A DNA stretch of 37,589 bases from a virus (Duplodnaviria; Heunggongvirae; Uroviricota; Caudoviricetes): the IMG/VR virus record IMGVR_UViG_641522623_000002. The stretch is one strand, 5' to 3'. Of the stretch, positions 8,830 through 32,796 are shown piece by piece. The notes under the pieces are model-generated. The model saw nothing but the letters and a program-made list of their open reading frames with translations. It was not told where the DNA came from and made no database searches. Position 1 is the first letter of the stretch. Each line of letters starts with the position of its first letter. Made by a program: the position numbers and the translations under genes.

Positions 8830-10002
8830 TTACGCGCTGACCTGGCTGGAGAAATTCACCAGGTACTGATCGGTGATGCGCTGACGCAACATCAGGTTTT
8901 CAAGTGGCGGCACTGGCGTGTAGTCGTAGTCGATGGTGAGTTTTCCGGCTTTCAGAGTGTCTTTGTCGTTCACCGACTCGTCCAGCCAGCAATCACCACC
9001 AATGAGATACCCCTGACTGACCAGGCTGCGCATTTTGGCGCGGATGCCCTCGATAATGTCGCGGGCCAGCGACGGGTTAAGCGGTTTATCCACCGCCCAC
9101 ATGTGTGCTTCTGCCATCGTGTCCATCAGCACCTGCGCCGTGCGGGTGTAGTTTTCGAAGGCAAAGAGCGGGTCATCACTCAGGCTGCGGGAACCCCAGA
9201 AGCGGAAACCGTCTTTACGCACAAGCGTGGTGACGTCGTTCTGGTTCAGCAGACCTGCATCGGTTGCCGGGTCCTGCAGATCCCAGAACACATCAGCAGA
9301 AATTCCGGTGACACCGTTCACGCCCACGTTGGACAGGCTTTTGTGCCATCCGGTCTGCTCGTCAATTTTGGCGCGCAGACCAAGCGCACGAGCGGTGGCA
9401 TAAGCCGTTGCTTCGGCATTCAGCACCGTGTCCCAGCCAGTAAAGTCGGGCCAGATCAGCATCCCTTCGCGCTGGCTGAAGTTTTCGCGGTAAGTGATCG
9501 CCTCCTGCACTGTCTTGCAGCCATACGCTGACAGGTAAGCAAACCCACGCAGGCTTTGCGCCACGCTCAGCAACTCAGTCGCAACGGCTTTGTTATCGTG
9601 GCCTGGCACGCCGAGAATGCGCGGTTTAACGCCGAGCTGTGACTGGGCAGATAACAGAGCTTTCATGCCTGTTTTTTTACCTTCAGCAGTCACTGCGCCG
9701 ATGATATTGGTCGTGGTTTCTTCTTCCGTTTCCCCCTGCGGCACACGCACAACAACGGTCACGGGTTTTGCCTGGTCAGCGATGGCATCCAGCGAACGGG
9801 CCAGCGTGCCGGACTCACCCGCTTTACCGCTGGCAGTCAGCACATCAGTGATCAGCACGGGTTTATTAAGAGGAAACATTTTTGCATCGGCATCATCGCC
9901 CGTGCAGACCATACCCACGATGGCGGTGCTCACCGTGGTAATGGATCGGGTGCCTTCGTTGACTTCAACAACGCGCACTCCGTGGTGGTAATCCTGAGCC
10001 AT
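8830..10002 (-). CDS. Contractile tail sheath protein gpFI
   Basis: 390 aa, first gene of the FI-FII-E-T-U-D operon. Confidence 0.88.
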
Positions 10003-10078
10003 AGTGGCGAACCTCCTGATTGGATTAGGCTTCGCCCTATGTTGAAGTGATTGTGCCTGACAAACAGCTAAGCGCAGT

Positions 10079-10096
10079 TGTGTCGTTATTCACACA
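10079..10096 (-). promoter_or_regulatory. Candidate Ogr/B activator site (TGT-N12-ACA) of the late tail promoter upstream of FI
   Basis: tgtgtcgttattcacaca about 80 bp upstream of the FI start codon; P2 late promoters carry a TGT-N12-ACA dyad near -55. Confidence 0.4.
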
Positions 10097-10144
10097 AAAT
10101 AACGGTATTTGTCCGCTTACAGGAAAAATCAAAATAATGCTGAC

Positions 10145-10717
10145 TCAGGGCGATTCATTGTTCTCATTCGCCGGAAATTTTCTATAAATGGTAGAAACGC
10201 CCACATCAAAAATCAGTGCAATACGCTGTCTTGATTCTCCGGCCTCGAGTAAACGTCCAATCTGTGCCCACTGTTTGGTAGTCAACTTAGGACGGCGTCC
10301 ACCTACTCTGCCTTTAGCACGAGCTGCAGCCAGCCCTGCCCTGGTACGTTCAACTATCAGTTCGCGTTCCATTTCAGCCAGGGCACCCATGACATGAAAA
10401 AAGAAACGGCCCATTGGGGTACTGGTATCAATACTGTCAGTCAGACTTCTGAAATTCACGCCGCGCTGGCGCAACTCTTCTATCAGAGTAACAAGATGCC
10501 GCATACTGCGCCCCAACCTGTCCAGCTTCCAGACAACCAGTGTGTCACCTGCCGATAGTGTCCTGAGCAGCTTTTTCAGCCCCGGTCTGTCGGACTTGGT
10601 GCCACTGATTTTATCCTCAAAAATCCGCTCACATCCCGCGCAGTTCAGTGCATTACGTTGCAAATCGGTGTTCTGGTCATTTGTTGACACGCGTACATAG
10701 CCAATAAGCATGATCAT
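10145..10717 (-). CDS. Serine-recombinase DNA invertase (Gin/Cin/Pin/Hin family)
   Basis: 190 aa; N-terminal resolvase catalytic domain (GYVRVSTNDQ with the active-site Ser) and C-terminal HTH; sits immediately beside a crossover site. Confidence 0.9.
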   Translation of the reverse strand: MIMLIGYVRVSTNDQNTDLQRNALNCAGCERIFEDKISGTKSDRPGLKKLLRTLSAGDTLVVWKLDRLGRSMRHLVTLIEELRQRGVNFRSLTDSIDTSTPMGRFFFHVMGALAEMERELIVERTRAGLAAARAKGRVGGRRPKLTTKQWAQIGRLLEAGESRQRIALIFDVGVSTIYRKFPANENNESP

Positions 10718-10738
10718 CCCTCTGAATAAAAACCGGAG

Positions 10739-11272
10739 ATGATGCCAGTTAGCCGTAATCTCTGCATTTTCATAAACGTTGGTTTGGGAGAAGGCTCAGC
10801 ATTACCCGTTGGCGTGCCTGTTCCGTGGCCTTCCGCCACTCCGCCAACAGGCTGGCTGAAATGCAACGGTGCGGCTTTTTCTGCTGAAGAATACCCGGAA
10901 CTGGCAAAGGCTTACCCGACAAATAAATTACCTGATTTACGCGGTGAGTTTATTCGGGGCTGGGATGACGGGCGTGGAGTGGATAACGGAAGGGGATTAT
11001 TAACGCTTCAGGATGGTGCTATTGTCAGTCATAACCACTATTGGGGAATCTGGACTTCACGAACTAACGACCAGACTCTGGAAAGTTTTACAGGCACCAC
11101 GATTTTAAAACAAATCACGCCCCTGTCTCCGTCCATTGACTTCGATAATTACCCAATTCCCAACCCGGCTATTACAGAGGGTGGTGTTGTTGCGGCAACG
11201 ACTAAACCTGCAGGTGCGAATGAAACACGCCCACGAAATGTCGCTTTTAACTATATTGTGAGGGCTGCATAA
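10739..11272 (+). CDS. Alternative tail-fibre C-terminal segment (silent orientation, Sv'-like)
   Basis: ORF begins at the crossover site and shares the GLGE junction codons in frame with H; it would fuse to the H constant region after inversion. Confidence 0.7.
   Translation: MMPVSRNLCIFINVGLGEGSALPVGVPVPWPSATPPTGWLKCNGAAFSAEEYPELAKAYPTNKLPDLRGEFIRGWDDGRGVDNGRGLLTLQDGAIVSHNHYWGIWTSRTNDQTLESFTGTTILKQITPLSPSIDFDNYPIPNPAITEGGVVAATTKPAGANETRPRNVAFNYIVRAA
10767..10792. repeat. Invertase crossover site, left (ttttcataaacgttggtttgggagaa)
   Basis: Inverted copy of the site at 12622-12647; lies at codons ...FINVGLGE of the silent tail-fibre C-terminus ORF. Confidence 0.75.
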
Positions 11273-11874
11273 TGAATAACGCAGAATTAAACAGTGAATT
11301 AATTGCCACTATGGCAGGAGAAATTACTGTTTATAACTTTGATGTCATGAGTCGGGAATATATTTCAGCTTCAACTGAATATCTTGCTATTGGTGTCGGC
11401 ATTCCGGCATATTCCTGTTTAGATGCCCCAGGCACATACAAAGCTGGTTATGCAATCTGCCGATCTGCAGATTTTAACTCATGGGAATATGTACCAGACC
11501 ATCGCGGTGAAATCGTCTTTAGCACCGAAACAGGAGAATCAAAAGAAATCACAGCTCCGGGTGATTACCCTGATAATACAACCACTATCGCCCCGTTAAC
11601 GCCATACGATAAATGGGATGGTGAGAAATGGGTGACGGATACCGAAGCACAGCATAGCGCCGCAGTAGATGCAGCAGAAGCACAGCGCCAGTCACTGATT
11701 GATACTGCAATGGCTTCAATCAGTCTGATTCAGCTGAAATTGCAGGCCGGACGTAAACTGACGCAGGCAGAAACAACCCGCCTTAACGCTGTGCTGGATT
11801 ACATTGACGCGGTGACGGCAACAGATACCAGCACAGCGCCGGATGTCATCTGGCCTGAACTGCCGGAGGCGTAG
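11272..11874 (+). CDS. Tail-fibre assembly chaperone (alternative, U'-like)
   Basis: 200 aa immediately after the alternative fibre tip; conserved Tfa C-terminus (...LDYIDAV...WPELP). Confidence 0.75.
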   Translation: MNNAELNSELIATMAGEITVYNFDVMSREYISASTEYLAIGVGIPAYSCLDAPGTYKAGYAICRSADFNSWEYVPDHRGEIVFSTETGESKEITAPGDYPDNTTTIAPLTPYDKWDGEKWVTDTEAQHSAAVDAAEAQRQSLIDTAMASISLIQLKLQAGRKLTQAETTRLNAVLDYIDAVTATDTSTAPDVIWPELPEA

Positions 11875-12265
11875 GCCATTCAATATCTGGGGCACTGGAG
11901 GTATCCACCAGTTCCAGTGCGTCCAGGTAATCCAGCCACAAATTATATTGCGCCAGTTCCTCACCTTTCAGACGACCAATAGCGGCTTTACCAGGCCATT
12001 GCTTACTGTTCATGTATTCGTTGGCCTGTTCAATAAGTATACTTTTCATTCCCTCCGCTTCAGCTATTTCCTGTTCCTGTGTCTTCGCTGGATATTCAGT
12101 AAGTACAGGGTAGTTATCCGGGTTATTGATAATAATTTTCCCCGTACTCTGACCATTCATAAGTTCATAATAAAGAGCATCTTCAATATCGAAAGCATCA
12201 TCGGGAATATCGTTGTTGTTTTCAGAGAAAAATCCCTGAACAGATGGGGACCATTTCATTTTCAT
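11846..12265 (-). CDS. Tail-fibre assembly chaperone gpG/U (expressed orientation)
   Basis: 139 aa directly downstream of H; C-terminus ...[11 protein letters not shown]...WPTPP is typical of Tfa; converges on and overlaps the U'-like gene. Confidence 0.8.
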
Positions 12266-13683
12266 AATTTCCCAATTCCTAAAATGTGGACGTCATCAGC
12301 CTTACGGGCATTCCAGGTGACAATTACATCGGTAGAGTGACGATTAACTGAGATTGCGTATGCTTCGTTAGTCGAGCCAGAAACTTTTGTAGCAAACACA
12401 GCAAACAGGACACCAAATGACTGGGGCCATTTATAGCCTGACAGCTGATAATTACCATTATTCAGTGTTACAGCTTTGGCTGCTGCACTTGATGGAATCG
12501 TCAGCCACTGGAGTATCAACCCTCCTGGCAAAAGTTGTTTTCCGTAATAATCCCTCACCCCACTAAATGAAACCATGTCCGGTATCTGATTTTCCCCTGT
12601 GCCCACATCCCGTTTTGCCGCCTCTCCCAAACCAAGGTATGTGAGAAGACCAGCTACATCCTTTCCACTCAAATTGGTAAGCGTATTGTCCAGCGGTTGT
12701 TTACCTGACAGCGCATTAAGCATTGTCGTGGCAAAGTTCGGATCATTCCCCAGTGCCGCCGCCAGTTCGTTCAGTGTATCCAGTGCCGCAGGTGCAGAAC
12801 CCACCATTGCCGCAATCGCCGATTTCACAAATGCCGTGGTGGCAATCTGTGTATTGTTGACCGACTGCGCCGCCGTGGGGGCTGTTGGCGTTCCGGTGAG
12901 TGCCGGACTCGACAACGGTGCTTTTAGTGCCAGCGCATTGTTAATGGTGGTACTGAAATTCGGATCATTGTTAATGGCTGCGGCTATTTCTTTCAGCGTG
13001 TCCAGCGTGGCTGGCGCACCATTAATAAGGGCCGTCAGTGCCGCCTGTACAAACGCAGTGGTCGCAACCTGCGTGGTATTATTCCCCGCCGCTGGCGTTG
13101 GCGCTTTGGGGGTTCCGGTAAATGTCGGGCTGGCTTTTGGCGCGTACTGTGAATGCGGGTCCGGTGCGGCAAGATGTTTTGCCATCTGATCATCCGCGTA
13201 CACCTTCAGCTCCAGTGCCTTGTCATCCACATACTTGCGGGTTGCCAGCACTACAGCAGGGTCGATTTTCAGGGTGATATTGTCCGTGCTGCTGGTAATC
13301 AGCACCATGCGCACGGTCTGAGTGCGCCCGCTACCTTCAGCCAGTTGCGGCTTATAGCTTTCCGGGCAGTTGCCCACGGCAATCAATGCCCCGGACTCAT
13401 CAAACAAGCCCACTTCACGTATCCACCAACCGCCCTCGTTTTCAGGGATCACCTGTTCGGCAATAATCTGGCTGCTGTTCTGCGGGTCGATATAAAGCAT
13501 ATTCAGCGCAGCCCGGCGTTTCTCATTTACCAGTGCCGTCTGCTTTGCGTCCGGCGTTGGCAATACTCCACCGCCATCGCCCACCGCCATATGGGTAATT
13601 TTTAGCGGCACACCGAGCGCGGCGGCGCTGGCAAGTTTCGCCGCGCCAATATCCGTCAGCAGGGTATAAAATTTTGTGCTCAT
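12262..13683 (-). CDS. Tail fibre protein gpH (constant N-terminal region plus currently joined variable C-terminus)
   Basis: 473 aa; P2-H-like N-terminus; internal tandem repeat of about 70 aa; crossover site inside the gene at 12622-12647. Confidence 0.88.
12622..12647. repeat. Invertase crossover site, right (inside H)
   Basis: ctctcccaaaccaaggtatgtgagaa, the inverted partner of 10767-10792. Confidence 0.75.
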
Positions 13684-15225: not shown

Positions 15226-15532
15226 CGTTATTACGCCGCCCGCTCAGCGCCACCACCATTGAACCGTCAAAATTGCTGTTGATGGTGATGGAATCCAGCG
15301 CCATCCGTGGCTCCCAGCGACTCAGCGCCACATACACTGCCGACATGACCTGCAGGCGTAATGCCGGATTTTGTGGCTGATCTATCAGTGCCGACAGCAG
15401 GGAACCATATTCCCGGCGAGCAATGCGGCTACCCTGCGGTGTCAGCAGAATGTCCCGCACCGACTGGCGCAGATGGTCAATATCAGTAATGGCTTTACCG
15501 CTGGTATTGTTCATCCCGCTATAAAGCGTCAT
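15173..15532 (-). CDS. Baseplate protein gpW
   Basis: 119 aa, between V and J. Confidence 0.8.
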   Translation of the reverse strand: MTLYSGMNNTSGKAITDIDHLRQSVRDILLTPQGSRIARREYGSLLSALIDQPQNPALRLQVMSAVYVALSRWEPRMALDSITINSNFDGSMVVALSGRRNNGVPVSLSVSTGAENGSD

Positions 15533-16113
15533 ACCGGGCCTCCGGTTGTATCGCCGCCTTTCAGGACGCCAGTATGCTGATGCACATCAACCACGATCCC
15601 GTTAGAACTCATCGCACCGCCGCCCTGGGTAACGCCGCCATTGATCACTACTTCACTATTAATACGCGTGCGGTCAGCCTCCAGCACAAACTCACTGGTT
15701 TTCAGGGTGATATTGTCGGCAGCCTCAATAACCATGGATTTGATGCCCCTGACATACCAGCGCCCGGTGGCGGGTTCGTATTCAAACCAGCCACCGTCAG
15801 GATGTTCTGTCACGCAGGCGTCCGCCGACGTCGACGGTGGTGCGAACTGATTCGAATAGACAGCGGGCAGCGCAAAGGCGGTCTCCAGATTGCCGCCCAG
15901 ACTCAGCAGCACCACCTGCTCACCTTCCGATGGTCGCCACCATGTCCGGGCATTCCCGGCACGCAGGGTCAGCCAGCTGATCCAGTTGGTTTCTAAGTCG
16001 CCTGTTTTCACCCGACAAAGCCAGTTTTCCCTGTCCACTTCGGTGACTACACCAGTGCGGATCAGGTTGGTGATAAGGCGCATGATTTCGGTCAGTTGTG
16101 TATTCATTTCCAA
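15529..16113 (-). CDS. Baseplate spike/hub protein gpV
   Basis: 194 aa; the N-terminus resembles P2 gpV from the second Met (MNTQLTEIMRL...), so the true start may be 16107. Confidence 0.82.
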   Translation of the reverse strand: MEMNTQLTEIMRLITNLIRTGVVTEVDRENWLCRVKTGDLETNWISWLTLRAGNARTWWRPSEGEQVVLLSLGGNLETAFALPAVYSNQFAPPSTSADACVTEHPDGGWFEYEPATGRWYVRGIKSMVIEAADNITLKTSEFVLEADRTRINSEVVINGGVTQGGGAMSSNGIVVDVHQHTGVLKGGDTTGGPV

Positions 16114-16233: not shown

Positions 16234-17745
16234 TTATTGCCTAAGTTTAGGCTTGATAATTCCTAGTGCATCCCACAAACCACAGTGTATTTCAAAATTC
16301 AACGTTGGGTCCATTTCTAAATCTTCATCATTAAATGACCACAAATAAACATCTCCGCCATCTGTTTTAGATCTCCTGAGTACATTCCCGATAGCACCGA
16401 CTTTAAATAAACAACTCAGTATTTTATTAAGCGTTAATGTACCATCTCCTAACTTCAATTCTTCAAATTTTTCCTTGATTAAATGTGGAGTGAAACCTCT
16501 TTTTTTTAATGAACGTAAAAGAGAAAAACTGTCATCTATTTCTGAATCACTTAAATGTCCCGCAAGCTCAGATCTAATTTCACGTAAAAGATAAGATGAG
16601 TATTTTTTAGAAATCTTTGTAAACATGGAACTTTCAAATCTTTCAGTATTTTCTCCATATTCATCTTGAATATAAGTTAGCATCCTAACGGCATCTCTTG
16701 GGCGACCTAGAGTTCTATGTAAAATATAAATAGAGCTATGCTCACCTGCAACTCTCTCAGTGAAAATTTTCCCGAACAAATTAGAACCATTTAAATCATT
16801 ATAATAATCAGTGGAGTTTTTGATCTTAAAAGCAATCATATCAAAAATCTCAGAATCACTTGCTCGTTCTCCAGCAGAACACCAATCAAGTGTAACAGAG
16901 TTATCTTCAATGATTTTATTAATATTCGGCGATGAAAAAGTATTTATTATATCATGACGAATAACTGCACCAATTTTAGCATCTATTTTATTTTGCATTA
17001 GAGTTTTATTAATTGACACAACAGCATTTAAAAAACTTATCATTGCATTTTTATATTCAACTGTTGCATCAAACTTATCATCTAACTCATCATAAAATAC
17101 ATATATTTTTTTATTACTCTCTTTTAGCATGTCAACAATAAAACACTGCAAAGATTCCATACATTCCAAATAATTCTTTTTTGTTTCTTTTGTTTTCTCG
17201 ACCTCACCATCTTTTGCTTTGGCTTCACCACGTAATACTGGGAATCTAAATCCGATACCAACCTCACCCGACGCTTGGTACTCCCTAGTTATTTCAACTG
17301 TTTGCTCAGGCCTTAACTCGCCCGCGACATGGCCAAAAGAACGTAAAAAACTTTCCAAATGAACTATTTTATCCTCACTAAATCCTTTTTTATTACTTAC
17401 AATATTCTTAGCAAGATTGACCAATATCATCCACTTGAAAATTGGTACATATTTTGTGGAAGACACATCCTGCCCCTGAAAGTGAGTAAGTTCATGAAAA
17501 ACAAAATCTTTTAATGATTCCACAACTGCAATATAATTATTTTTTCGCTTGGCGTTACAGTAGACATTAACAAGCAATGTCTTACCCGTCCCCTTCCTGC
17601 CAATTACGAGCATTTTATTTTTTCTATCAAGTTTACTTAATGAATTATTTATATCATAAAAATATTTCGAGTAATTATCGAGAAATAATACCTCATTCTC
17701 TCCATAAACCTCACCAAATTCAAAATCACCAATTTTGGGGCGCAT
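16234..17745 (-). CDS. AT-rich cargo gene: P-loop NTPase of unassigned family (candidate anti-phage defence protein)
   Basis: 503 aa; Walker A GRKGTGKT (aa 49-56, encoded about 17578-17601); Walker-B-like IYVFYDELDD; GRPRD sensor/arginine-finger-like motif; codon usage and base composition are visibly AT-rich compared with the flanking S and V genes; own terminator. Confidence 0.75.
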   Translation of the reverse strand: MRPKIGDFEFGEVYGENEVLFLDNYSKYFYDINNSLSKLDRKNKMLVIGRKGTGKTLLVNVYCNAKRKNNYIAVVESLKDFVFHELTHFQGQDVSSTKYVPIFKWMILVNLAKNIVSNKKGFSEDKIVHLESFLRSFGHVAGELRPEQTVEITREYQASGEVGIGFRFPVLRGEAKAKDGEVEKTKETKKNYLECMESLQCFIVDMLKESNKKIYVFYDELDDKFDATVEYKNAMISFLNAVVSINKTLMQNKIDAKIGAVIRHDIINTFSSPNINKIIEDNSVTLDWCSAGERASDSEIFDMIAFKIKNSTDYYNDLNGSNLFGKIFTERVAGEHSSIYILHRTLGRPRDAVRMLTYIQDEYGENTERFESSMFTKISKKYSSYLLREIRSELAGHLSDSEIDDSFSLLRSLKKRGFTPHLIKEKFEELKLGDGTLTLNKILSCLFKVGAIGNVLRRSKTDGGDVYLWSFNDEDLEMDPTLNFEIHCGLWDALGIIKPKLRQ

Positions 17746-17832: not shown

Positions 17833-18297
17833 TCACTTATGCAACCCTCCCTTTTCCTGTAACCAACTGATTAATGTGTAAAATATAAAACTTTGTTCTT
17901 TTTCAGCAATGCCTAACAAACGACGCTCTGCATAACGGACCTCCGGTCCTTTTCGACTGACGCGATCACGCAGGCCGTAATGGTGAACGCAGGCGATGCG
18001 CTGCACCTTACCTTCAAACTGTACGCTGGCAGAATCCGCGCTGGCGGCGGTTTTCAGGTATTTTGTGGTGCGAAGTTTTGTAAACATCTGCCGTTTGATG
18101 CGGCCTTTTTTACTGCGTGCTGTTACTCGCCTCGGTTCATAGCTGCTGCCATCAGGATTGCGTTGCATCCTGATATTCTGCTGCTGTGTCCGGCGCAGTT
18201 CCTGCGCCAGCTGGCGCATCATGCGGCTTCTGGCGGCTGGTTCCAGATTTGCCAGCAAGGCACTCAGCCAGTCGTCCACTTTCTGCAATTCAGCCAC
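17833..18297 (-). CDS. Tail completion protein gpS
   Basis: 154 aa downstream of R; P2 order R-S. Confidence 0.8.
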   Translation of the reverse strand: MAELQKVDDWLSALLANLEPAARSRMMRQLAQELRRTQQQNIRMQRNPDGSSYEPRRVTARSKKGRIKRQMFTKLRTTKYLKTAASADSASVQFEGKVQRIACVHHYGLRDRVSRKGPEVRYAERRLLGIAEKEQSFIFYTLISWLQEKGGLHK

Positions 18298-23424: not shown

Positions 23425-25191
23425 ATGAACACCACACTGACACCCGCAGATCTCGATCCCCGTCGGCAGGCCATGCTGCTGTACTTTCAGGGATACCGCG
23501 TAGCCCGCATAGCTGAAATGCTGGGCGAGAAAGTTGCAACCGTTCACAGCTGGAAAAAACGCGACAAGTGGGGTGACTATGGGCCGCTGGATCAGATGCA
23601 GCTCACCACCACCGCACGCTACTGCCAGCTCATCATGAAGGAGCACAAAGAAGGGAAAGATTTCAAAGAGATTGACCTGCTGGCGCGCCAGTCGGAGCGC
23701 CACGCGCGGATCGGCAAGTTTAACAATGGCGGCAACGAAGCCGACTTAAACCCTAACGTCGCCAACCGCAACAAAGGCCCACGCCGTCAGCCGGAAAAGA
23801 ATGTTTTCACCGATGAGCAGATTGAGAAGCTGGAAGAAATCTTCCATTCCTCCATGTTCAACTACCAGCGCCACTGGTGGGAAGCCGGAAAAACCAACCG
23901 CATCCGCAACCTGCTGAAGTCACGCCAGATCGGCGCGACCTTTTACTTTGCCCGTGAAGCCCTGATTGACGCCCTGCTTACCGGGCGTAACCAGATTTTC
24001 CTTTCCGCCAGTAAGGCACAGGCTCACGTTTTTAAGCAGTACATCATCGACTTCGCCAAAGAAGTCGAGGTGGAGCTGAAAGGCGATCCGATGGTGCTTC
24101 CTAACGGAGCCACGCTTTACTTCCTCGGCACCAATGCCCGCACGGCCCAGAGTTACCACGGCAACCTGTATCTGGATGAATATTTCTGGATACCGAAATT
24201 CCAGGAACTGCGCAAAGTGGCTTCCGGTATGGCTATTCACAAAAAATGGCGACAAACCTATTTTTCCACGCCATCCAGCCTGACACACAGTGCTTATCCG
24301 TTCTGGTCCGGTGCGCTGTTCAACCGTGGGCGCAACAAAGCCGATAAGGTGGACATCGACCTGTCCCACAGCAATCTGGCCCCCGGCCTGCTGTGCGCAG
24401 ACGGGCAATACCGCCAGATAGTCACCGTGGAAGATGCAGTGCGCGGCGGATGTAACCTTTTCGACCTTGACCAGTTGCGCATGGAGTACAGCCCGGACGA
24501 ATACCAGAACCTGCTGATGTGCGAGTTTGTGGACGATCTCGCGTCCGTGTTTCCGCTCAGCGAGCTGCAGGCGTGCATGGTGGACAGCTGGGAAGTCTGG
24601 ACCGACTTTCATGCACTGGCTCTGCGCCCGTTTGGCTGGCGCGAAGTGTGGATCGGTTATGACCCGGCAAAAGGTACGCAAAACGGCGACAGCGCCGGAT
24701 GCGTGGTGGTGGCACCGCCAGCCGTGCCGGGCGGTAAGTTCCGCATTCTTGAGCGTCACCAGTGGCGCGGGATGGACTTCCGCGCCCAGGCTGACGCCAT
24801 CAAAAAACTGACCGAACAGTACAACGTGACCTATATCGGTATCGACTCGACCGGCGTTGGTCACGGGGTTTATGAGAACGTGAAAGCGTTCTTTCCTGCC
24901 GTCCGGGAGTTTGTCTACAACCCCAACGTTAAAAACGCCCTGGTACTCAAGGCCTACGACATTATCAGCCACCGCCGTCTGGAGTTTGACGCCGGGCACA
25001 CCGACATTGCGCAGTCATTCATGGCTATCCGTCGCGCCACCACCGCCAGCGGCAACCGCCCGACCTATGAAGCCAGCCGCAGCGAAGAAGCCAGCCACGC
25101 CGATCTGGCCTGGGCAACAATGCACGCACTGTTTAACGAACCGCTGCAGGGCGAGTCCGCCAATACCAGCAATATTGTGGAGATTTTTTGA
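23425..25191 (+). CDS. Terminase ATPase (large) subunit gpP
   Basis: 588 aa, divergent from O and followed by Q with an ATGA overlap. Confidence 0.88.
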   Translation: MNTTLTPADLDPRRQAMLLYFQGYRVARIAEMLGEKVATVHSWKKRDKWGDYGPLDQMQLTTTARYCQLIMKEHKEGKDFKEIDLLARQSERHARIGKFNNGGNEADLNPNVANRNKGPRRQPEKNVFTDEQIEKLEEIFHSSMFNYQRHWWEAGKTNRIRNLLKSRQIGATFYFAREALIDALLTGRNQIFLSASKAQAHVFKQYIIDFAKEVEVELKGDPMVLPNGATLYFLGTNARTAQSYHGNLYLDEYFWIPKFQELRKVASGMAIHKKWRQTYFSTPSSLTHSAYPFWSGALFNRGRNKADKVDIDLSHSNLAPGLLCADGQYRQIVTVEDAVRGGCNLFDLDQLRMEYSPDEYQNLLMCEFVDDLASVFPLSELQACMVDSWEVWTDFHALALRPFGWREVWIGYDPAKGTQNGDSAGCVVVAPPAVPGGKFRILERHQWRGMDFRAQADAIKKLTEQYNVTYIGIDSTGVGHGVYENVKAFFPAVREFVYNPNVKNALVLKAYDIISHRRLEFDAGHTDIAQSFMAIRRATTASGNRPTYEASRSEEASHADLAWATMHALFNEPLQGESANTSNIVEIF

Positions 25192-26216
25192 TGGGAAAGA
25201 GTAAGAAGAACCGCACTGCGGCGACGAAACAGATCCAGCTTAAAAGTCAAACTACAGCCGAAGCATTCAGCTTCGGCGATCCCGTTCCTGTTCTGGACCG
25301 CCGAGAACTGCTGGATTATGTGGAATGCGTACAGATGGACCGCTGGTATGAGCCGCCCGTCAGCTTTGACGGACTGGCGCGCACCTTCCGCGCTGCCGTG
25401 CATCATAGTTCCCCGATTGCAGTAAAGTGCAACATTCTGACCAGCACCTACATCCCTCACCCGCTGCTCAGCCAGCAGGCTTTTTCGCGTTTTGTGCAGG
25501 ACTATCTGGTATTTGGTAACGCCTACCTGGAGAAACGCACGAACCGCTTCGGTGAAGTTATCGCCCTTGAACCTGCCCTGGCAAAATACACCCGACGCGG
25601 GTTAGACCTGGATACCTACTGGTTTGTGCAATACGGTATGACCACGCAGCCATATCAGTTCACGAAAGGCAGCATCTTTCATCTGATGGAACCGGACATC
25701 AACCAGGAGATCTACGGCCTGCCCGGTTATCTTTCTGCCATTCCGTCAGCCCTGCTCAACGAGTCCGCCACGCTGTTCCGCCGAAAGTATTACATTAACG
25801 GCAGTCATGCTGGCTTCATCATGTACATGACCGATGCTGCGCAGAACCAGGAGGATGTGAACAACCTCCGCAACGCAATGAAAAGCGCCAAAGGTCCAGG
25901 CAACTTCCGCAACCTGTTTATGTACTCACCTAACGGCAAAAAGGATGGTCTTCAGATTATCCCGTTGTCAGAAGTCGCGGCAAAGGATGAATTTCTGAAC
26001 ATCAAGAACGTGAGCCGGGATGACATGATGGCGGCACACCGCGTGCCTCCGCAAATGATGGGTATCATGCCGAATAATGTTGGCGGGTTTGGGGATGTGG
26101 AGAAGGCATCCACGGTTTTTGTACGTAATGAATTAAAGCCTCTTCAACAACGAATTAGAGAGGTGAACAATTGGCTACATGATGACGTAATAAAATTCCA
26201 AGATTACTCCTTGTAA
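25188..26216 (+). CDS. Portal protein gpQ (3' end apparently replaced by AT-rich sequence)
   Basis: 342 aa; the last ~30 codons are markedly AT-rich, unlike the rest of the gene. Confidence 0.85.
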   Translation: MMGKSKKNRTAATKQIQLKSQTTAEAFSFGDPVPVLDRRELLDYVECVQMDRWYEPPVSFDGLARTFRAAVHHSSPIAVKCNILTSTYIPHPLLSQQAFSRFVQDYLVFGNAYLEKRTNRFGEVIALEPALAKYTRRGLDLDTYWFVQYGMTTQPYQFTKGSIFHLMEPDINQEIYGLPGYLSAIPSALLNESATLFRRKYYINGSHAGFIMYMTDAAQNQEDVNNLRNAMKSAKGPGNFRNLFMYSPNGKKDGLQIIPLSEVAAKDEFLNIKNVSRDDMMAAHRVPPQMMGIMPNNVGGFGDVEKASTVFVRNELKPLQQRIREVNNWLHDDVIKFQDYSL

Positions 26217-26268: not shown

Positions 26269-26586
26269 TTATATACCACATACAAAATTGATCTTAACGC
26301 TTTTATCAACAACAAGCAGAGAAGTGCCAACAGACTTAATAAATCCCAGTTCATACTCTTCTGAATGCGTCATTGTAATAATATGAACAGGAACAAATAA
26401 ATCAAGCTCCCGCAGCTTTCGCTTCAATAATAAACCATCGACACAATCACCTATCACAAGCATATCAATATCATTTGCATCGCAAAAACTCTTTAATGCT
26501 GACCCAAATACATATACATCCACCATATATAAACTATGATGGATAATAACATCACAGATCGATTCAATCGTATGTTTAAAATTCAC
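26269..26586 (-). CDS. Minimal nucleotidyltransferase (Pol-beta superfamily, MNT-like), third gene of the cargo operon
   Basis: 105 aa; GS-x9-DxD motif (VYVFGSALKSFCDANDIDMLVIG); 1-nt overlap with the upstream gene; AT-rich. Confidence 0.7.
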   Translation of the reverse strand: MNFKHTIESICDVIIHHSLYMVDVYVFGSALKSFCDANDIDMLVIGDCVDGLLLKRKLRELDLFVPVHIITMTHSEEYELGFIKSVGTSLLVVDKSVKINFVCGI

Positions 26587-27245
26587 TACCGTGAAATTCT
26601 TCGTAATAAATCACCCAACTTGTAAAGCTCCACCCCGATACTTTGAGCAGCCTCTTTTGCCTGAGTCGTCAATCGTCCATTAGGATTGGAGGAAAAAACA
26701 ACATCACAATTGCCATGCAACCCTATCGCATCTCTTACAGAACCCGCTGTCATATCATAATCATTCGCAGCGATAATAACTAAGTCCGCCAAGCCACGTC
26801 TTTTAAGTCTATATTTTTTGTTGGTTTCTCGCTCTACAGAGCTTACATGTGAATGTTGATTGAACACTCTATTTATAAACAAATGCTCTTTATCAAGATG
26901 CTCAAGCGGATTATTAGCTCTTAAGGAAGATGCAATATGCCCAAATGAACCCACTCCTATTTTCTTTTGTTCTAGTAATCTCATTGCATCACCAGAGATA
27001 AATTCAACACCTCCCTTGACTGATAGAAAATCAATTTTTTTATTGTCTAGGTATTCATTTATCTCAGGACATGTTATCCGGCCAGTATTGATTGCCCCGA
27101 TCAAATAGGTGTCACCCTGTGTAGTATTAATCACTAAAGTACCATCATCTATCACCTCTATATTTTCGACACATTTATTTTCTTGTAATTTTCCTGCCAT
27201 CCATGAAATATAGCCTTCACTCGCATTTATGCTCATTGGATTCAT
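26586..27245 (-). CDS. Hypothetical protein, middle gene of the cargo operon (possible HEPN-like Rx4H motif)
   Basis: 219 aa; translationally coupled on both sides; contains RVFNQH; no confident family assignment from sequence alone. Confidence 0.6.
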   Translation of the reverse strand: MNPMSINASEGYISWMAGKLQENKCVENIEVIDDGTLVINTTQGDTYLIGAINTGRITCPEINEYLDNKKIDFLSVKGGVEFISGDAMRLLEQKKIGVGSFGHIASSLRANNPLEHLDKEHLFINRVFNQHSHVSSVERETNKKYRLKRRGLADLVIIAANDYDMTAGSVRDAIGLHGNCDVVFSSNPNGRLTTQAKEAAQSIGVELYKLGDLLRRISR

Positions 27246-27937
27246 CCTATAAATAGTTCAGATGCAGCTTCTGGAAACCTACTACCATTAGCATCGGTTA
27301 AGCCCAAATGTTTTGATTCAAAGTCATCTATATGAACACAAAGCTTTGAAAAAACATTCTTCTCATCTTCACTCATGAGGTGATAGTTTTGTTCAACCAG
27401 TCGCTGTACTTTTCTATTGTTGGGTAAGATATGAGATTGTACTTTTCTTAACCATACTTCTGCATTTGGATTTTCAGGGTCAACGCTGTTCTCTTGGGTT
27501 GGTCCATATGTTACAAAAATGGTATTGTTTTCTCTGAAGTATTTTTCTAACTCCTGTCTAACAGATTCTCGATTGTCATATGTTTTAACACCAAAGGTTG
27601 CATTTATTTTATCAATATGGCCGTTTTTCCAAGAACGGATAATTTCATCAGTAAAATGTTCCTCTGCCTTATCAATTGTCGTATGGCAATTAGCACATAG
27701 AAGAATAATGTTGTCAAAATGACCTCTCTGCTCATCAGTTAGATCAGCATTGGTTCTAGGTCCATTATCAATGGCACTAAAAATGTGAGCAAGTTCTCCA
27801 ATTGTTATATTTTTGTCGCCAGCATCAACAAACAAAGGTTGCAAGCATTGTGGATTTTGGCAAAAGCCACCTGAGCTGGCAAAAAGCCGTCTAACTGTAT
27901 TAGCGTTTGGAGAAGCTTTTCCCCTACTGCAAGCCAT
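27242..27937 (-). CDS. HNH-motif nuclease-like protein, first gene of the cargo operon
   Basis: 231 aa; CQNPQC...GELAHI...NIILLCANCHTTID (Cys pair, His, Asn, C-x2-CH) typical of HNH/His-Me finger nucleases; AAGG ribosome-binding site upstream. Confidence 0.7.
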   Translation of the reverse strand: MACSRGKASPNANTVRRLFASSGGFCQNPQCLQPLFVDAGDKNITIGELAHIFSAIDNGPRTNADLTDEQRGHFDNIILLCANCHTTIDKAEEHFTDEIIRSWKNGHIDKINATFGVKTYDNRESVRQELEKYFRENNTIFVTYGPTQENSVDPENPNAEVWLRKVQSHILPNNRKVQRLVEQNYHLMSEDEKNVFSKLCVHIDDFESKHLGLTDANGSRFPEAASELFIG

Positions 27938-28009
27938 GAACTAACCTTAAAAGTATAGAAATTAGGATGTTAATTTATTACTGAACAACCCTATAAGCAA
28001 GCTTGCTAA

Positions 28010-28070
28010 TTGTGGTGAGCGCGCGCTCGTATCCCCGCCACGCCTGCCCGCTTTATGTAGTGGTTTTTAT
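28010..28070. other. Putative cos site (terminase cleavage / cohesive-end region)
   Basis: The minus strand reads GGCGTGGCGGGGATACGAG (28026-28044), matching the recalled start of P2/186 cohesive ends (GGCGTGGCGGGGA...); lies between the Tum operon side and Q as in P2/186. Confidence 0.5.
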
Positions 28071-28092
28071 GCACCTGCATGATCTACGCAAA

Positions 28093-28112
28093 AGCCCGCC
28101 AGAACTGGCGGG
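28093..28112 (-). terminator. Terminator hairpin downstream of the lipoprotein gene
   Basis: gcccgcca-gaac-tggcgggc; on the minus strand it is followed by TTTTG. Confidence 0.5.
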
Positions 28113-28217
28113 CCTTAACACAAAAGATCCTCAAACGATCATGCGATCTCATGCAGCATAGACATGCGCGTTTATGCAGAATGTGCAAAATCGTAACATA
28201 CTCAGTAAGCGTGAAAC

Positions 28218-28895
28218 CTAGAACGTGACAGCCTTGTCAAAGCCAGAAATAATTGTATAAGAAATAGACGAGTTATCAGCCTTGTTCACTTTGAACTTGG
28301 CACCTTTGTAAGCGATAACATCACTTCCCTTAGAATCTACAGAAAAATCTGTTGTAAATGCTGCACGAGCCATATCGTTTGCAAATTCACGATAGGTGAA
28401 CTTCATTACACCGCCTGCATTTCCATTGTATTCGATAGTCTTAACCAATGAATTACTCACTCGACACAGCCCATCAGGAACACGTTTGATAGAAATTTCT
28501 GATGCAGTATAAGAAGTGCCATTTGGCGGTGATATCTCATTTTTTGCAGCATCGTAACTAACATAATCAACATAGTTACCGATTTGCCCATAGAGATTTT
28601 TTAACGCAACAGCTTGAGGGTTATGATAATTGCGGTAAATTCCATTCCCCTCACTGCAATATGTACCAGCAGCGATAGAAGACAATGCACCATTAGCCGC
28701 ACCAAGTTCTAGTACGTCCGTTTTAAATCCAGTAGCAGATGTGATAATGGGATCGCCCATGTAGGCGGTAGCACTTTGCCCAATAGCTGGCTTCACCACT
28801 TCAATAGCAGTGATATTTCGGTTAGAAGCATGTGGCACGCAACCAGTTAGGATTACAGCAAGAGATATTGGTAACGCTACATTATTAATTTTCAT
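28218..28895 (-). CDS. AT-rich cargo gene: predicted lipoprotein of unknown function
   Basis: Signal peptide MKINNVALPISLAVILTGC with lipobox LTGC; about 225 aa from this Met (the ORF track extends to 28949); AT-rich; between the Tum operon and cos. Confidence 0.65.
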   Translation of the reverse strand: MKINNVALPISLAVILTGCVPHASNRNITAIEVVKPAIGQSATAYMGDPIITSATGFKTDVLELGAANGALSSIAAGTYCSEGNGIYRNYHNPQAVALKNLYGQIGNYVDYVSYDAAKNEISPPNGTSYTASEISIKRVPDGLCRVSNSLVKTIEYNGNAGGVMKFTYREFANDMARAAFTTDFSVDSKGSDVIAYKGAKFKVNKADNSSISYTIISGFDKAVTF

Positions 28896-29008
28896 TTTTA
28901 GCCTATTATTCTTTTCTTGACAAAAAACAAGGCGATATCTGATTGACATCGCCTCTCACTCATATGTAACCCTTTTTGATTAGTAAAAACAAGCGTCTAT
29001 TGACAAAA

Positions 29009-29242
29009 TCAATGCAGCCAGCTGTCGTCTTCCCACACCTTCTGCAAAATTTTCATCACTTGTTTTCTTTCTTCGTCCAGTTGCAGTCCGGTCAGTTCCA
29101 CACCGTTAGAGCTACCTTTACGGATACGGATTACCGTTTTGGGATACAGGGGGCGCAGATTGCGGTAAAGCTCGGATTCAAGGGCGTCCAGGGTAGACTG
29201 GCTAATCTTCTGCTCTTTATCGATCATTATTTCAATGCGCAT
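29009..29242 (-). CDS. DinI-family protein
   Basis: 77 aa from MRIEIMIDK...; resembles E. coli DinI (MRIEVTIAK...) and has the acidic C-terminus WEDDSWLH; GAGGTGA ribosome-binding site; second gene of the LexA-box operon. Confidence 0.7.
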   Translation of the reverse strand: MRIEIMIDKEQKISQSTLDALESELYRNLRPLYPKTVIRIRKGSSNGVELTGLQLDEERKQVMKILQKVWEDDSWLH

Positions 29243-29252
29243 AAAAGTCACC

Positions 29253-29441
29253 TCAGCTGATGACATCCATTGAGCGGTTGTATTCGTGGCTTCTGATTTT
29301 TGCCATGAGTTCATCTGTCAGTTCAGAAACCCACTGCAAAGCCAGCCCCTTCTCTTCATCACTACACTCACTAGCCGCTACAAGCTTAAGAAAAAAATCA
29401 ATGCGCTGGAGCTTCAAAGACTCCAAAAAATAGTCCTGCAT
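29253..29441 (-). CDS. Small protein, first gene of the SOS-regulated operon (possible Tum-like antirepressor module)
   Basis: 62 aa with a strong AGGAGG ribosome-binding site; LexA box about 45 bp upstream; function inferred from position only. Confidence 0.5.
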   Translation of the reverse strand: MQDYFLESLKLQRIDFFLKLVAASECSDEEKGLALQWVSELTDELMAKIRSHEYNRSMDVIS

Positions 29442-29481
29442 CTTTCCTCCTATGACACCAAAGCAATACTGTATACATAAC

Positions 29482-29501
29482 CACTGTTTATATTTACAGT
29501 A
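29482..29501 (-). promoter_or_regulatory. LexA (SOS) box
   Basis: caCTGTttatatttACAGta fits CTGT-N8-ACAG with an AT-rich spacer, positioned over the promoter of the 29441-29009 operon. Confidence 0.7.
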
Positions 29502-29593
29502 TATAATAATCTTACTGATGTAAAACGTTTTTTTACGTTCATCAGCCTGATATGCCTGGTATTATTAAGAGCACGAATTGTTAACCCGCGTAA

Positions 29594-31966
29594 TTAATAC
29601 AGGTTCCGCCACTTATCATCTTCCCGCAAACGTTGGTTCCGATAGAAGATACGCAGGCCTGCTCCTGACGGAATACTGCCGCCGCGAAGCAGTAAATCGA
29701 CCTCTTTCTCGCTGCCATCAAATCCCCTGGACTTCAGTTCATACACGAGCTGCTGTCGCTGATGATCTGTAATTCGCTGTTTGTAGTCTTTACGCCGTTT
29801 CGGTTTCACCAGGCGTAACCTTGCTGCCAGTTCCCGGCGCTCTTTTTTGTTCATACTGTGCAGGTAATCGTGCAACTCCTTGTCATCCATGCGGGTGATA
29901 TCCGTTCTGGTATCTCCATCAGCTGATTTGTCTTTCGCTTGTTGGTACAAATTTTCAGCAAGGGGACAGTTATTGCCACGAGTCCAAGGGGTGCAAGCGC
30001 CCTGGTCGGCTGCCGCCTCCTGAACATCAACGGCCTTACGAACCATTTTCCACTTCACGGCATGAGTGCAGATCTTGCCCTCTGCAATAGGTGACCAGAT
30101 GCCATAAATACGAATGCCGTGATCGCCATAGGCGGTCGGCTCTTCGTTGATTTCATAAGCGGTTCTGATGAGGTGATATTTGCGGGGAACCAGTACGCCG
30201 CCCTGCTTCATGATGTAGGTGGCAAAACAACCAGCATCAGCAGCAGCCAGGATGGCATCAAGGTGCGGGTTATCCAGTACCGGCGCACCTGCTTTTTTGT
30301 CCCCCTGTTGCCTTGCCGCCTGACCAGCCAGCAATCGCAGTTCACGGTAAGCCTGACGCCCCGGAATGCCAAAGAAGCGGAATTGCTGAACACGATGCAG
30401 AGACGCCCAGGCATTAACGTATTCAGCATTATCACGCAGGGATTTCCCCGTTTCCTTGCTGATCTCGCCAGCCAGACCACGCCCGTCAATGTTCTTACTG
30501 ATGTATTTCGCGATGTAGCTTGTTGGCGTACCTTTGCGCGGGTTAATCAACTCAGACTTAAAGCGCGGCCCAGTGTTATTGCCCAGTTCCTCGCGGTCTT
30601 CACGGATGGCAAACTTACGCAGTAATGCAGTGATGGCGCGGCGGTCTTTTTTGCGCATAAAACACAACAGGTGCCAGTGAACTGTACCGTCATGATGCGG
30701 CTCAGCCACCCGCACGCCATACCACCGCAATCCGGCTTTGTGCATCGCCTTACGAAATGCAGCAAACATGCCGACCAGATAATCACTGCTTTGTCTTACC
30801 GTCGCATTTGTCCAAGTTGGGTTGGGCCTGCCATTATTTAGCGTGGAATGGAAACGTGACGGACAGGTGATGGTGTAGAAAACGGCGCAGTCACCGCGCA
30901 TTTCCGCGATAAGCTCCAGGCCTTTAACACAGGCCATCATCTCATTGCGGCGATGCGCAGGGTTGCTGCTGCTGGCGTTTACCACATCCTCCATGTCCAG
31001 CGTGTCGCCGTCTTCGTTCACCAGTTCATGAGAACGAAAAAACTCCAGCGACTTACGGCGCTGCTCACGTTTATGCATCACGGCTTCATAGCTGACATAG
31101 GGAGATGCTTTTTTGCTGACCAGGCAGACAGCACGCAACTGCTCTTCCCGCCATTCGCAACGCATCTTCCATAATTTCCGGTACCACCAGTCAGCGCACA
31201 ACATACGCGCCAGCGAACCCGGAATGAGTTCATAGGGCACGGGTTTACGGCGGTTTCTTTTCCGGCGGAGTTGCTCAAACGCAGGCGGGATGACATCCAG
31301 ACGTAGGGTTTCCGCTGCCACCTTTTCCCATGTCTTGCGGATTTCTTCTGGCTTAACGTCATCGGTGACATACAAATCGCCACAAGCTGCATCAAGGCAC
31401 ATGCTCATATGCGCAGCTACCAGGGTGGACAGGCGTTTCACCTGATCCTGACTCATTTCAGGCAGGATCAGCAGGCCGTCCAGCCCTTCATGGCTTGCCA
31501 TAAAGCGAAAAGAAGTGGATAGCTGACAGTCGCGTACATGCTCCAGCCGTTCCAGACATGGCTTAATCGTCTCACGCAAATAGCGGGAATAAGCCTTTGG
31601 CCTGCCCAGGCTGCTGAAGTATTCAATACGTTGCATCAGCGGCTTGCTGATATGGGAAGGCTGGGCATTGACGTCCGCCAGAATGACCATATCTGGATTA
31701 AAACGCTGCTGCTCATGCGCCAGCTTTGCCCGACTAATGAGCTTATCCTGCTCCATTTCGCGCTGGACAGGATCACGGGATTCATTAAAGAAATAACGCT
31801 CCCAGACCTGATCACTCAGTGCTTCGCGGCGCAGCTGTTCCTGCTCGTTATCGGCAGCGTACAGAGCGATCAGGTTTGAAAGCGCAGAAACTGAAGATTG
31901 CTCTTCTGTCTCTACGTAAGGATTGATTGCTTTTTTCTCAGCATTCCAGGAATAGCTGTAGTTCAT
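29594..31966 (-). CDS. Replication initiation protein gpA (rolling-circle nickase)
   Basis: Large ORF in the P2 gene A position. Start chosen at the Met whose ATG overlaps the upstream stop (TAATG) and has a GGAG ribosome-binding site; the ORF track extends to 32017. Confidence 0.8.
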
Positions 31967-32796
31967 TACGCAATCTCCAGTTCGAGCTGTGAAGGCTGCA
32001 AACCATTCGACAGCCAATCAGAAACTGAAGGTGGGCGAACAGCTTCAATTGCACCTTTTAAAATTGCGCAACGGTTTTTCAGAATGACAGCTTTCAGCTC
32101 CTTTTCCGTCAGATTGCGCGAATATTCAGCCTCCTGAATAGCCCGCGTCAGCTCAGGATATTTGCTATTAAATTTGGGGACATTGCAGGCAAGATTTGTA
32201 CTGTCGGCAGTCGCCAGTGGGTAATTTCCCAACACACGACCGTCAAGCATGCGCAAACCATGAACAGCTGTTTTGAAATTGTGTCGGCAATAAATTGCTT
32301 CAAAAGCGTCCTGCATACGACGATGCCAGTGCGCAGTTCTGATAGCCGCATATTCACCAGACGATCCAAAGCAGACACGAGGCCATTCACGACATAGCTC
32401 GATAAGCCGATCGATTGACTCGTGCAGATGCCAGACGGGAGTTGCCTTCCCGTAGAACATTTTCGGAACTTCGTTTATCAGGGCATCATTGTCACGTTCA
32501 CCTCCGTCCACAACATCAGGAATGACAAAAAAAGCGACCTTAGGATGGTGGTAATAGTTCAGGAGCCATTTATAAAAATCACTCCAGTTAATTTTTAGCC
32601 CACGCACCCATGCAGAAAATGCGCCGTTATCAATGCCGACGACCTGAGCGTGCTGAATGGACGCCGCAATCTGATCTGGTCGTACATAGGAGACGAAAGC
32701 GCCAGCTCCGCTCACCGCAATACGATGAACGTCGCCAGCACTTCCCCAGACAGGCGTCCCATGGAAATGATGAATTCCGTGGTGCATTTCTTTCAC
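31966..32796 (-). CDS. Hypothetical protein, translationally coupled between the Dam methylase and gene A
   Basis: 276 aa; His-rich N-terminus; no family recognised from sequence alone. Confidence 0.6.

Follow-up and report, generated by a model that had tools for sequence, protein, structure and literature searches.

Which function is carried by the small gene located next to the cohesive-end site (cos) of the prophage analysed here, and how is this gene expressed? The stretch of DNA (hereafter the window; IMG/VR record IMGVR_UViG_641522623_000002, 37,589 nucleotides [nt]) is a P2-family prophage of the 186/Fels-2/PSP3 type from Escherichia coli ATCC 8739. Over a 1-kb query (28000-29000), the window and the chromosome of this strain are 100% identical; the region is annotated there as prophage, and the window encodes terminase, portal protein, gpA, Dam methylase, a 186-type CI and a CP76 CII. 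The gene encodes a predicted lipoprotein precursor of 225 amino acids (aa). It is carried by an 843-bp insert at the right end of the prophage, which the comparisons given below indicate to have been acquired horizontally, and it is probably transcribed by attenuated read-through from a LexA-controlled promoter. The product is tentatively proposed to act, alone, as an envelope-level exclusion factor. The coordinates of the features are given in Table 1.

The gene and its lipoprotein signal

The lipoprotein gene is a real gene and not a chance open reading frame (ORF). The same ORF is called by the Prokaryotic Genome Annotation Pipeline (PGAP; WP_000700647.1, 'hypothetical protein'), its product matches PHROG 1353 along almost its whole length (residues 1-223 against profile positions 1-230 of 230, E 3.1e-105), and at least 1000 contigs encode the identical protein. 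The preliminary description of this DNA, made from the sequence, reported an AT-rich gene. This holds: the guanine plus cytosine (GC) content of the coding sequence (CDS) is 0.407, against 0.53 for the late genes, and that of its third codon positions (GC3) is 0.31, against 0.56 for gpA. A start at an upstream in-frame ATG (28949), which is used in some Salmonella annotations and gives a 243-aa ORF, was rejected: this ATG falls within a hairpin, and in the Buttiauxella copy (82% identical) a stop codon blocks the corresponding frame. A motif ATAGG(G), found 5-9 nt ahead of the downstream ATG in five of the copies examined, is compatible with a Shine-Dalgarno site.

The N-terminus, MKINNVALPISLAVILTGC, includes a positively charged n-region (K2), a hydrophobic core (h-region) and a lipobox (L-T-G-C19, consensus [LVI][ASTVI][GAS]C), so that the textbook lipoprotein signal announced by the preliminary description was recovered. 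G18 and C19 are invariant across 22 homologues (35-88% identity). Among 63 relatives, some as distant as about 22% identity, at least 90% retain the lipidation cysteine, and the strict lipobox is found in 189 of the 234 full-length family members. Asp at position +2 is the inner-membrane retention signal of Enterobacterales; it occurs in none of the 189 lipobox-bearing members. Sequence rules predict lipidation of the protein and, because its +2 residue is Val and not Asp, sorting to the outer membrane. The mature lipoprotein has 207 aa (about 22 kDa, pI 7.8) and three cysteines (Cys19, Cys80, Cys144). Cys80 and Cys144 are also invariant in the set of 22 homologues, which would fit a periplasmic disulfide.

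The intact allele is evidently under strong purifying selection. The copy of Klebsiella phage 4LV2017 differs by 6 nt and 0 aa, and that of Buttiauxella by 173 nt and 41 aa (non-synonymous divergence, dN, 0.10; synonymous divergence, dS, saturated). This selection is one of the points that make a hitch-hiking or decaying passenger, devoid of current selected function, very improbable; the others are the conservation of the reading frame and of the lipobox across thousands of clusters and the occurrence of identical protein sequences in three genera. A passenger would agree with the location of the gene behind a terminator and without a promoter, and with the truncated or frameshifted alleles that are common in public data (P0004, P0006, P0045, P0254), some of them on many contigs. 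Among these are a form of 155 aa, truncated at the N-terminus and present on 43 Salmonella contigs, and forms of 185, 119 and 118 aa with 41-94 members each. Some truncated alleles may be assembly errors; the copies in NCBI genomes suggest recurrent inactivation.

The insert and its integration at a cos-proximal hotspot

The gene lies between gpA (29594-32017, minus strand) and the portal gene Q (25188-26216, plus strand). The old and tin genes of P2 lie in the same gpA-gpQ interval (Rousset et al. 2022, PMC9122126), so that the old/tin position assigned to the gene by the preliminary description is correct, and this cos-proximal locus is a documented hotspot of anti-phage genes (PMC9122126, PMC9519451). 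The gene has the features of hotspot cargo, i.e. location between gpA and gpQ, proximity to cos and variable presence among sibling prophages. WP_000700647 is included in Table S5A of PMC9122126, as 'hypothetical'.

A search of the window for the exact P2 cos, with up to 3 mismatches allowed, gave no match, and cos was placed by alignment with the annotated PSP3/186 cos. The PSP3 record gives a 19-nt cos, GGCGTGGCGGGGAAAGCAT, annotated as identical to that of 186. From 28044 to 28026, the minus strand of the window reads GGCGTGGCGGGGATACGAG, preceded by ATAAAGCGGGCA and followed by CGCGCGC; both flanks align with the right end of PSP3 joined to its left end. As the position of cos is fixed by this alignment, no gene of the right arm lies beyond the lipoprotein gene, whose stop codon starts 174 bp from cos.

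The limits of the insert are given by an empty-site prophage (SCU-204) and by a prophage with other cargo (KK19-02), which match the window just at 28019-28167 and from 29011 on. The insert, whose GC content is 0.396, is present in a minority of related prophages: the flanks are matched by 1276 E. coli genomes, 49 of which carry the gene. The downstream hairpin is not part of the insert. The preliminary description attributed to the gene a terminator of its own, which proved incorrect: the terminator is part of the backbone block (28019-28167), which empty sites also retain. Since this block occurs in prophages without the lipoprotein gene (and also in P2-like phages of several genera), the terminator is that of the right arm of the phage.

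Carriers and genomic contexts

The lipoprotein is the orthologue of STM2726 of Fels-2 (99.1% identical). The P2-like carriers include Fels-2, S. Enteritidis RE2010, about 24 Klebsiella phages (100% identity) and a Buttiauxella prophage (82%); the slot of the gene is always the same. The neighbour on the other side of cos is a trio including an HNH gene in the window, a 565-aa ORF in Fels-2, a retron in Klebsiella phage 4LV2017, a TIR/SEFIR gene in Buttiauxella, and AIPR and others in Table S5A of Rousset et al. (PMC9122126). Because these neighbours differ between carriers, the lipoprotein gene is an independent module.

The same partner swapping led to the rejection of a functional link between the lipoprotein and the trio of the window, in which the lipoprotein would be a component of a multi-gene defence system with the HNH, 219-aa and nucleotidyltransferase-like proteins. 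The two units share the strand and a low GC content, with 281 bp between them (27937 to 28218), and the HNH protein matches the PADLOC candidate PDC-M68A (2e-29). They are separated by cos and by a strong terminator, and the lipoprotein is found with at least five different cos-Q cargos, the two varying independently. Such a system is close to refuted.

The segment from dinI to cos, including the lipoprotein gene, has 99% protein identity to Fels-2, against 87-91% for gpA, portal and capsid proteins. The C-terminal part of the tail fibre H is divergent from those of both Fels-2 and the Klebsiella phage, and phages of E. coli, Klebsiella and Salmonella carry the identical lipoprotein together with divergent tail fibres. 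The module spreads by recombination and is not bound to one receptor specificity.

More distant homologues are found in other types of elements. Those of SSU5/pHCM2-like phage-plasmids (E. coli, Shigella, Citrobacter, Klebsiella) are about 37% identical and are lone inserts on the opposite strand; one of these replicons carries terminase, capsid, tape-measure and tail-fibre genes. Those of Acinetobacter Vieuvirus prophages (siphophages) are about 27% identical and lie between tail genes and the tape-measure gene. Homologues borne by islands are located near serine recombinase genes and putAbiC or OLD-like genes. Other contexts are the vicinity of MobA, of an IS110 element (adjacent) or of a TIR gene. 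The Vibrio campbellii homologue has a stable chromosomal context. No recurrent partner gene was found among the contexts examined. By sequence similarity, the family is carried by at least three unrelated temperate phage lineages and by several islands.

The distribution also bears on a role in lysogenic conversion, in which the lipoprotein would increase host fitness by resistance to serum, complement or antimicrobials, or by altered adhesion. The lipoproteins Bor and Iss of lambda and TraT act in serum resistance. A comparable role would agree with the outer-membrane lipoprotein features, with the high frequency of the identical protein in clinical K. pneumoniae clones (sequence types ST11, ST258, ST512 and ST437) and in prophages of S. 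Enteritidis and S. Typhimurium, with the location of an 80%-identical homologue beside CS1-type fimbrial genes, and with the chromosomal location of some homologues. It is nevertheless unlikely: the protein has no Pfam match to the Bor or TraT families, the family extends to genomes without host association (marine, soil, Flavobacterium), and SOS-coupled expression would be an odd fit for a colonisation factor.

The 80%-identical homologue (L027, 5001-5678) lies beside CS1-type fimbrial usher genes, with no P2 genes called nearby, and about 3.6 kb from an Asp-Al_Ex/TrkA_C permease gene. A host gene of the same kind flanks the prophage of the window (935-2620). This homologue may have been left by a prophage that occupied the same attachment region.

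The gene is under-annotated in reference phages, as the records of two carriers show. In Klebsiella phage 4LV2017 (NC_047818.1), an intact, 100%-identical gene is present at 9953-10630 and is annotated merely as a 62-aa fragment (10442-10630). In RE2010 (NC_019488.1), no annotated feature covers the gene.

Expression

Transcription of the lipoprotein gene is probably due to attenuated read-through from the LexA-controlled tumA/dinI promoter. The insert directly follows a dinI-like gene, itself preceded by a tumA-like gene and by a LexA box; the motif CTGT-N8-ACAG occurs only once across the 37.6-kb window. The tum gene is split in Fels-2 and PSP3, and tum of 186 is under LexA control (PMC3121763). 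The preliminary description placed the gene between an SOS-controlled Tum/DinI-like operon and cos, with which the LexA box, the Pfam match of DinI and the alignment of cos agree. As regards membership of the SOS regulon, the LexA box is present and a terminator-like hairpin separates dinI from the lipoprotein gene.

This hairpin likely attenuates read-through from the SOS operon. It is kept in the Buttiauxella P2-like prophage, with one compensatory change (G-C to U-A), one change of G-C to G-U and an intact U-tract. No sigma-70-like site could be placed in the stretch from the hairpin to the ATG; the sole match overlaps the start codon. Inspection of the 115-nt leader by eye revealed nothing convincing as a promoter, and an Rfam scan of 27900-29600 gave no RNA family. 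Given the lack of a convincing own promoter and the terminator-like hairpin ahead of the gene, SOS-coupled rather than constitutive expression in the lysogen is predicted. When the insert is examined as a moron, its composition is deviant, its only promoter-like match coincides in part with the start codon, the terminator downstream of the gene is that of the backbone and the upstream hairpin is part of the insert. A homologue of 57% identity on a Klebsiella island has an extended -10 promoter (10/12) 55 nt upstream.

In Fels-2, the predicted operon STM2726-STM2727-STM2728 is induced by the mutagen MX; all three genes are significant and vary in the same direction, with fold changes that range from 2.6 to 14.8 (p <=0.01; PMC2225428). 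In the P2-like Salmonella prophage BTP5, tum is the top-expressed transcript of the prophage in lysogens (PMC7067206), from which it follows that the slot is transcriptionally active.

SOS timing would also suit a role in the lytic cycle, i.e. either protection of virions from re-adsorption to debris or vesicles, or conditioning of the outer membrane for lysis or release. The lipoprotein Llp of T5 protects released virions from re-adsorbing. The location of the gene directly downstream of the LexA-controlled induction operon, without a promoter of its own, the rise of the Fels-2 orthologue with DNA damage and the maintenance of the slot in P2-like phages down to 82% protein identity are consistent with such a role. 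It is made quite improbable by the lack of the gene in most sibling prophages (carried by 49 of the 1276 flank-sharing E. coli genomes), by the association of the same protein with different tail fibres and hosts, and by the homologues found elsewhere, which have their own promoter or are chromosomal. The phage, moreover, already has spanin genes (LysB/LysC type in Fels-2).

Protein family and predicted structure

An exhaustive search with a hidden Markov model (HMM) retrieved 2434 clusters at 50% identity with E <=1e-3, 1256 of them with E <=1e-10. The members, nearly all 200-240 aa long, are found in Enterobacterales, Acinetobacter, Vibrio, Pseudoalteromonas, Ferrimonas, Sphingomonadaceae and Flavobacterium. 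They are named 'hypothetical protein' or 'putative lipoprotein' in databases; the UniRef name of the exact protein is 'Lipoprotein'. No model of Pfam, NCBIfam or PADLOC matches the lipoprotein or 62 relatives (Pfam at E <=0.1 for the protein and E <=0.01 for the relatives), long members gave only noise against the family libraries, and comparison with the PDB gave no structural relative. The sole library match is PHROG 1353, annotated as of unknown function. In a clustering at 90% identity, the cluster of the protein is represented by a branched-chain amino-acid transaminase (IlvE), apparently an artefact, and this explains why the exact protein was missing among the first homology matches.

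The AlphaFold model is confident and all-beta (17 strands, no helices), with a predicted local distance difference test (pLDDT) score of 80 overall and about 90 for residues 40-220. Residues 20-30 form a disordered tether. In the wide family, residues 146-220 are conserved (mean frequency of the top residue about 0.6), Y156, G158, Y168, E170, R177, D187, K197, N208 and Y213 being near-invariant, and residues 61-145 are highly variable (0.25-0.34). The extra length of members of 314-381 aa is located in a much longer middle part.

A hypervariable region on a conserved scaffold, in a small, stand-alone exported lipoprotein, is also what an orphan immunity protein or inhibitor might show, i.e. 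a periplasm-facing lipoprotein neutralising a type VI secretion system effector, a bacteriocin or a lysozyme. Periplasmic lipoproteins are frequent among known immunity proteins, and the scattering of the family over mobile elements without a fixed partner is compatible with this role. No toxin gene lies beside any copy examined, however, and no similarity to immunity or lysozyme-inhibitor families was found in Pfam, NCBIfam or the PDB, so that this explanation is rather doubtful, with a low probability.

Proposed function

Envelope-level exclusion by the lipoprotein alone is the likeliest of the readings considered here, though it is held with limited confidence. The precursor would be exported by Sec, then lipidated and cleaved at Cys19 (Lgt, Lsp, Lnt) and carried by Lol to the outer membrane. 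There, a tether of about 12 residues would hold an all-beta, probably disulfide-bonded (Cys80-Cys144) protein made of two parts, a C-terminal module conserved family-wide and a hypervariable middle. Read-through would lead to a low level of lipoprotein in the lysogen and to a rise upon DNA damage and prophage induction. Through its variable region, the lipoprotein would bind a component of the outer membrane or periplasm and thereby block adsorption or DNA entry of competitor phages; exclusion could extend to other mobile elements. The target would differ from the receptor of the carrier phage itself. This reading is favoured because unrelated temperate phages repeatedly captured the gene, because of its location in a hotspot, because it has no partner and because the protein sets a hypervariable region on a conserved scaffold. 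Circumstantially, the stand-alone state of the gene, its spread over unrelated phage lineages and islands, and the hypervariable middle of its product fit an envelope function of benefit to the mobile element.

Masking of the carrier's own receptor was rejected as unlikely, the identical protein accompanying different fibres and hosts. For the same reason, a target conserved across Enterobacteriaceae, or exclusion of heterologous phages, is more plausible.

Several points weigh against an exclusion factor. The gene is dispensable, since truncated or frameshifted alleles are frequent. Scans of Pfam, PHROG and PADLOC gave no homology to known exclusion lipoproteins or PADLOC models. In the literature searched, WP_000700647, EcHS_A0921 and STM2726 are mentioned by one microarray study, and no functional test of the family was found; the fold change of STM2726 itself is absent from that study (PMC2225428), and the induction in Fels-2 could reflect prophage replication instead of read-through. 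Some relatives are stable chromosomal genes (Vibrio campbellii), which is compatible with a general envelope function. Finally, the validated defence systems of sibling phages (DprA-PRTase, retron) occupy the other slot, between cos and Q.

In a wider reading, which is somewhat unlikely as it stands, the whole family, very large and undescribed, would consist of swappable single-gene exclusion modules exchanged among unrelated temperate phages. The conserved C-terminal scaffold and the hypervariable centre would recognise different outer-membrane targets in each member. In P2-family phages, a wiring to the SOS operon through the attenuating terminator would either close the cell surface to competitors or protect the progeny at commitment to lysis.

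Comparison with known systems

The lipoprotein behaves like the class that includes Cor, Llp, TraT and Bor, yet it is outside these families by sequence or fold. Cor (phi80, N15, HK022) and Llp (T5) are outer-membrane lipoproteins that inactivate FhuA, Llp being expressed in the lytic programme. They are likewise phage-encoded, stand-alone, Lsp-type lipoproteins encoded by accessory inserts, and the lytic expression of Llp would parallel the SOS-coupled expression proposed here. They differ from the lipoprotein of the window by their size (roughly 60-80 aa, against about 207 aa for the mature protein), by their sequence (the only PHROG match of the window protein being phrog_1353, without a Pfam match) and by their target, as they block the carrier's own receptor whereas the window protein is found together with various tail fibres and hosts.

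TraT (F-like plasmids) and Bor/Iss (lambda) are also single-acting outer-membrane lipoproteins of mobile elements. TraT, which is of similar size, mediates surface exclusion and serum resistance. The Pfam models of TraT and Bor/Iss are not matched by the window protein, whose predicted structure is all-beta and helix-free. Old and Tin of P2 and other hotspot cargo share with the lipoprotein gene the slot (from the replication gene to cos), the low GC content and the variable presence among siblings. Old, Tin and those hotspot systems that have been validated act in the cytoplasm, as nucleases or sensors; the cargo of the window is a predicted exported lipoprotein.

Two other likenesses concern operon logic and exclusion. 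In colicin E operons, a LexA-controlled promoter is followed by upstream genes and an internal terminator, and the lysis lipoprotein is expressed via read-through. The arrangement of the window is similar (LexA promoter, internal terminator, lipoprotein gene with probable read-through), but colicin lysis proteins are mature peptides of about 30 aa with unrelated sequence, and nothing suggests a lytic or release activity for the window lipoprotein. Glo of the P2-like vibriophage K139 is an exported periplasmic accessory protein reported to be involved in phage exclusion and is not known to be a lipoprotein. It is encoded at a different locus, near the immunity region, and is likened here by description.

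The annotation as a hypothetical protein and the entry in the hotspot table of Rousset et al. are already public. The family comprises more than 2000 clusters at 50% identity, without a Pfam or NCBIfam model or a similar structure, and the identical protein is found in Fels-2 of S. Typhimurium LT2, in S. Enteritidis prophages and in prophages of high-risk K. pneumoniae clones. A phenotype, if found, would annotate a common 'hypothetical' gene and would extend the hotspot catalogues, in which cytoplasmic systems predominate, by a module that acts at the envelope and consists of one gene. Such a phenotype could also bear on the prediction of host range in phage therapy against Klebsiella, Salmonella and E. 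coli lysogens. A terminator followed by a gene, behind a LexA promoter, is a simple example of how cargo can borrow the induction signals of a prophage.

Table 1. Features of the lipoprotein insert and of its surroundings (positions are those of the window)
Feature	Position	Strand	Basis and remarks
Lipoprotein precursor CDS, 225 aa	28218-28895 (ATG 28895, stop 28218-28220)	minus	ORF list, PGAP, PHROG 1353
Signal peptide with lipobox LTGC	28839-28895 (Cys19 codon 28839-28841)	minus	translation, alignment
Terminator-like hairpin, 11 bp then UUGUUUUUUGUC	28929-28955	minus	centroid -16.6 kcal/mol; ends 34 nt before ATG
Cargo insert, 843 bp (leader, hairpin, CDS, 50 bp of 3′ sequence)	28168-29010		between dinI stop and conserved cos flank
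Backbone intrinsic terminator, end of right arm	28086-28116 (hairpin 28091-28116 and U-tail)	minus	fold -26.3 kcal/mol, z -4.05
cos cohesive ends	28026-28044	minus-strand reading GGCGTGGCGGGGATACGAG	aligned, including flanks, with annotated PSP3 cos
DinI-like gene (TumB type), adjoins the insert upstream	29009-29242	minus	Pfam DinI 9e-23, PGAP, PSP3 tumB
TumA-like gene, 62 aa, putative antirepressor half of 186 Tum	29253-29441	minus	phrog_698 6e-38, position of PSP3 tumA
LexA box CTGTTTATATTTACAG	29484-29499		CTGT-N8-ACAG, 43 nt upstream of tumA-like ATG

Other regions of the prophage

The trio found between cos and the portal gene is a cluster of low GC content (0.37; 26269-27937, minus strand). 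It encodes an HNH protein (27242-27937) that resembles the HNH N-termini of effectors of the cyclic-oligonucleotide-based antiphage signalling system (CBASS/SAVED effectors), a family-less 219-aa protein (26586-27245) and a 105-aa protein (26269-26586) that is minimal and nucleotidyltransferase-like, with sub-threshold matches to Polbeta/NTP_transf_2. The cluster looks like a putative defence system. In sibling phages, the cos-portal slot is occupied by a retron, a DprA-PRTase, a TIR/SEFIR gene or a 565-aa ORF.

The position between the genes of baseplate protein V (15529-16113) and tail-completion protein S (17833-18297) is a further cargo slot, within the late operon. It harbours a 503-aa ORF (16234-17745, minus strand; GC 0.325), absent at that place from Fels-2 and Klebsiella phage 4LV2017. 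This ORF has no Pfam or PADLOC match and matches only phrog_13260 (unknown function, 4e-72).

A 276-aa ORF (31966-32796, minus strand) lies between gpA and the Dam methylase gene. It has no Pfam match and matches phrog_887 (queuine tRNA-ribosyltransferase, moron or auxiliary metabolic gene; 2e-96, profile positions 5-311 of 509). Its product could have a DNA-modification or anti-restriction function.

A serine invertase gene of the Cin/Hin type (10145-10717) adjoins alternative tail-fibre and fibre-assembly segments located on the opposite strand (10739-12340). By analogy, the region 10145-12340 looks like the invertible host-range switches of Mu and P1. The same arrangement of invertase and tail-fibre genes is found in Fels-2.

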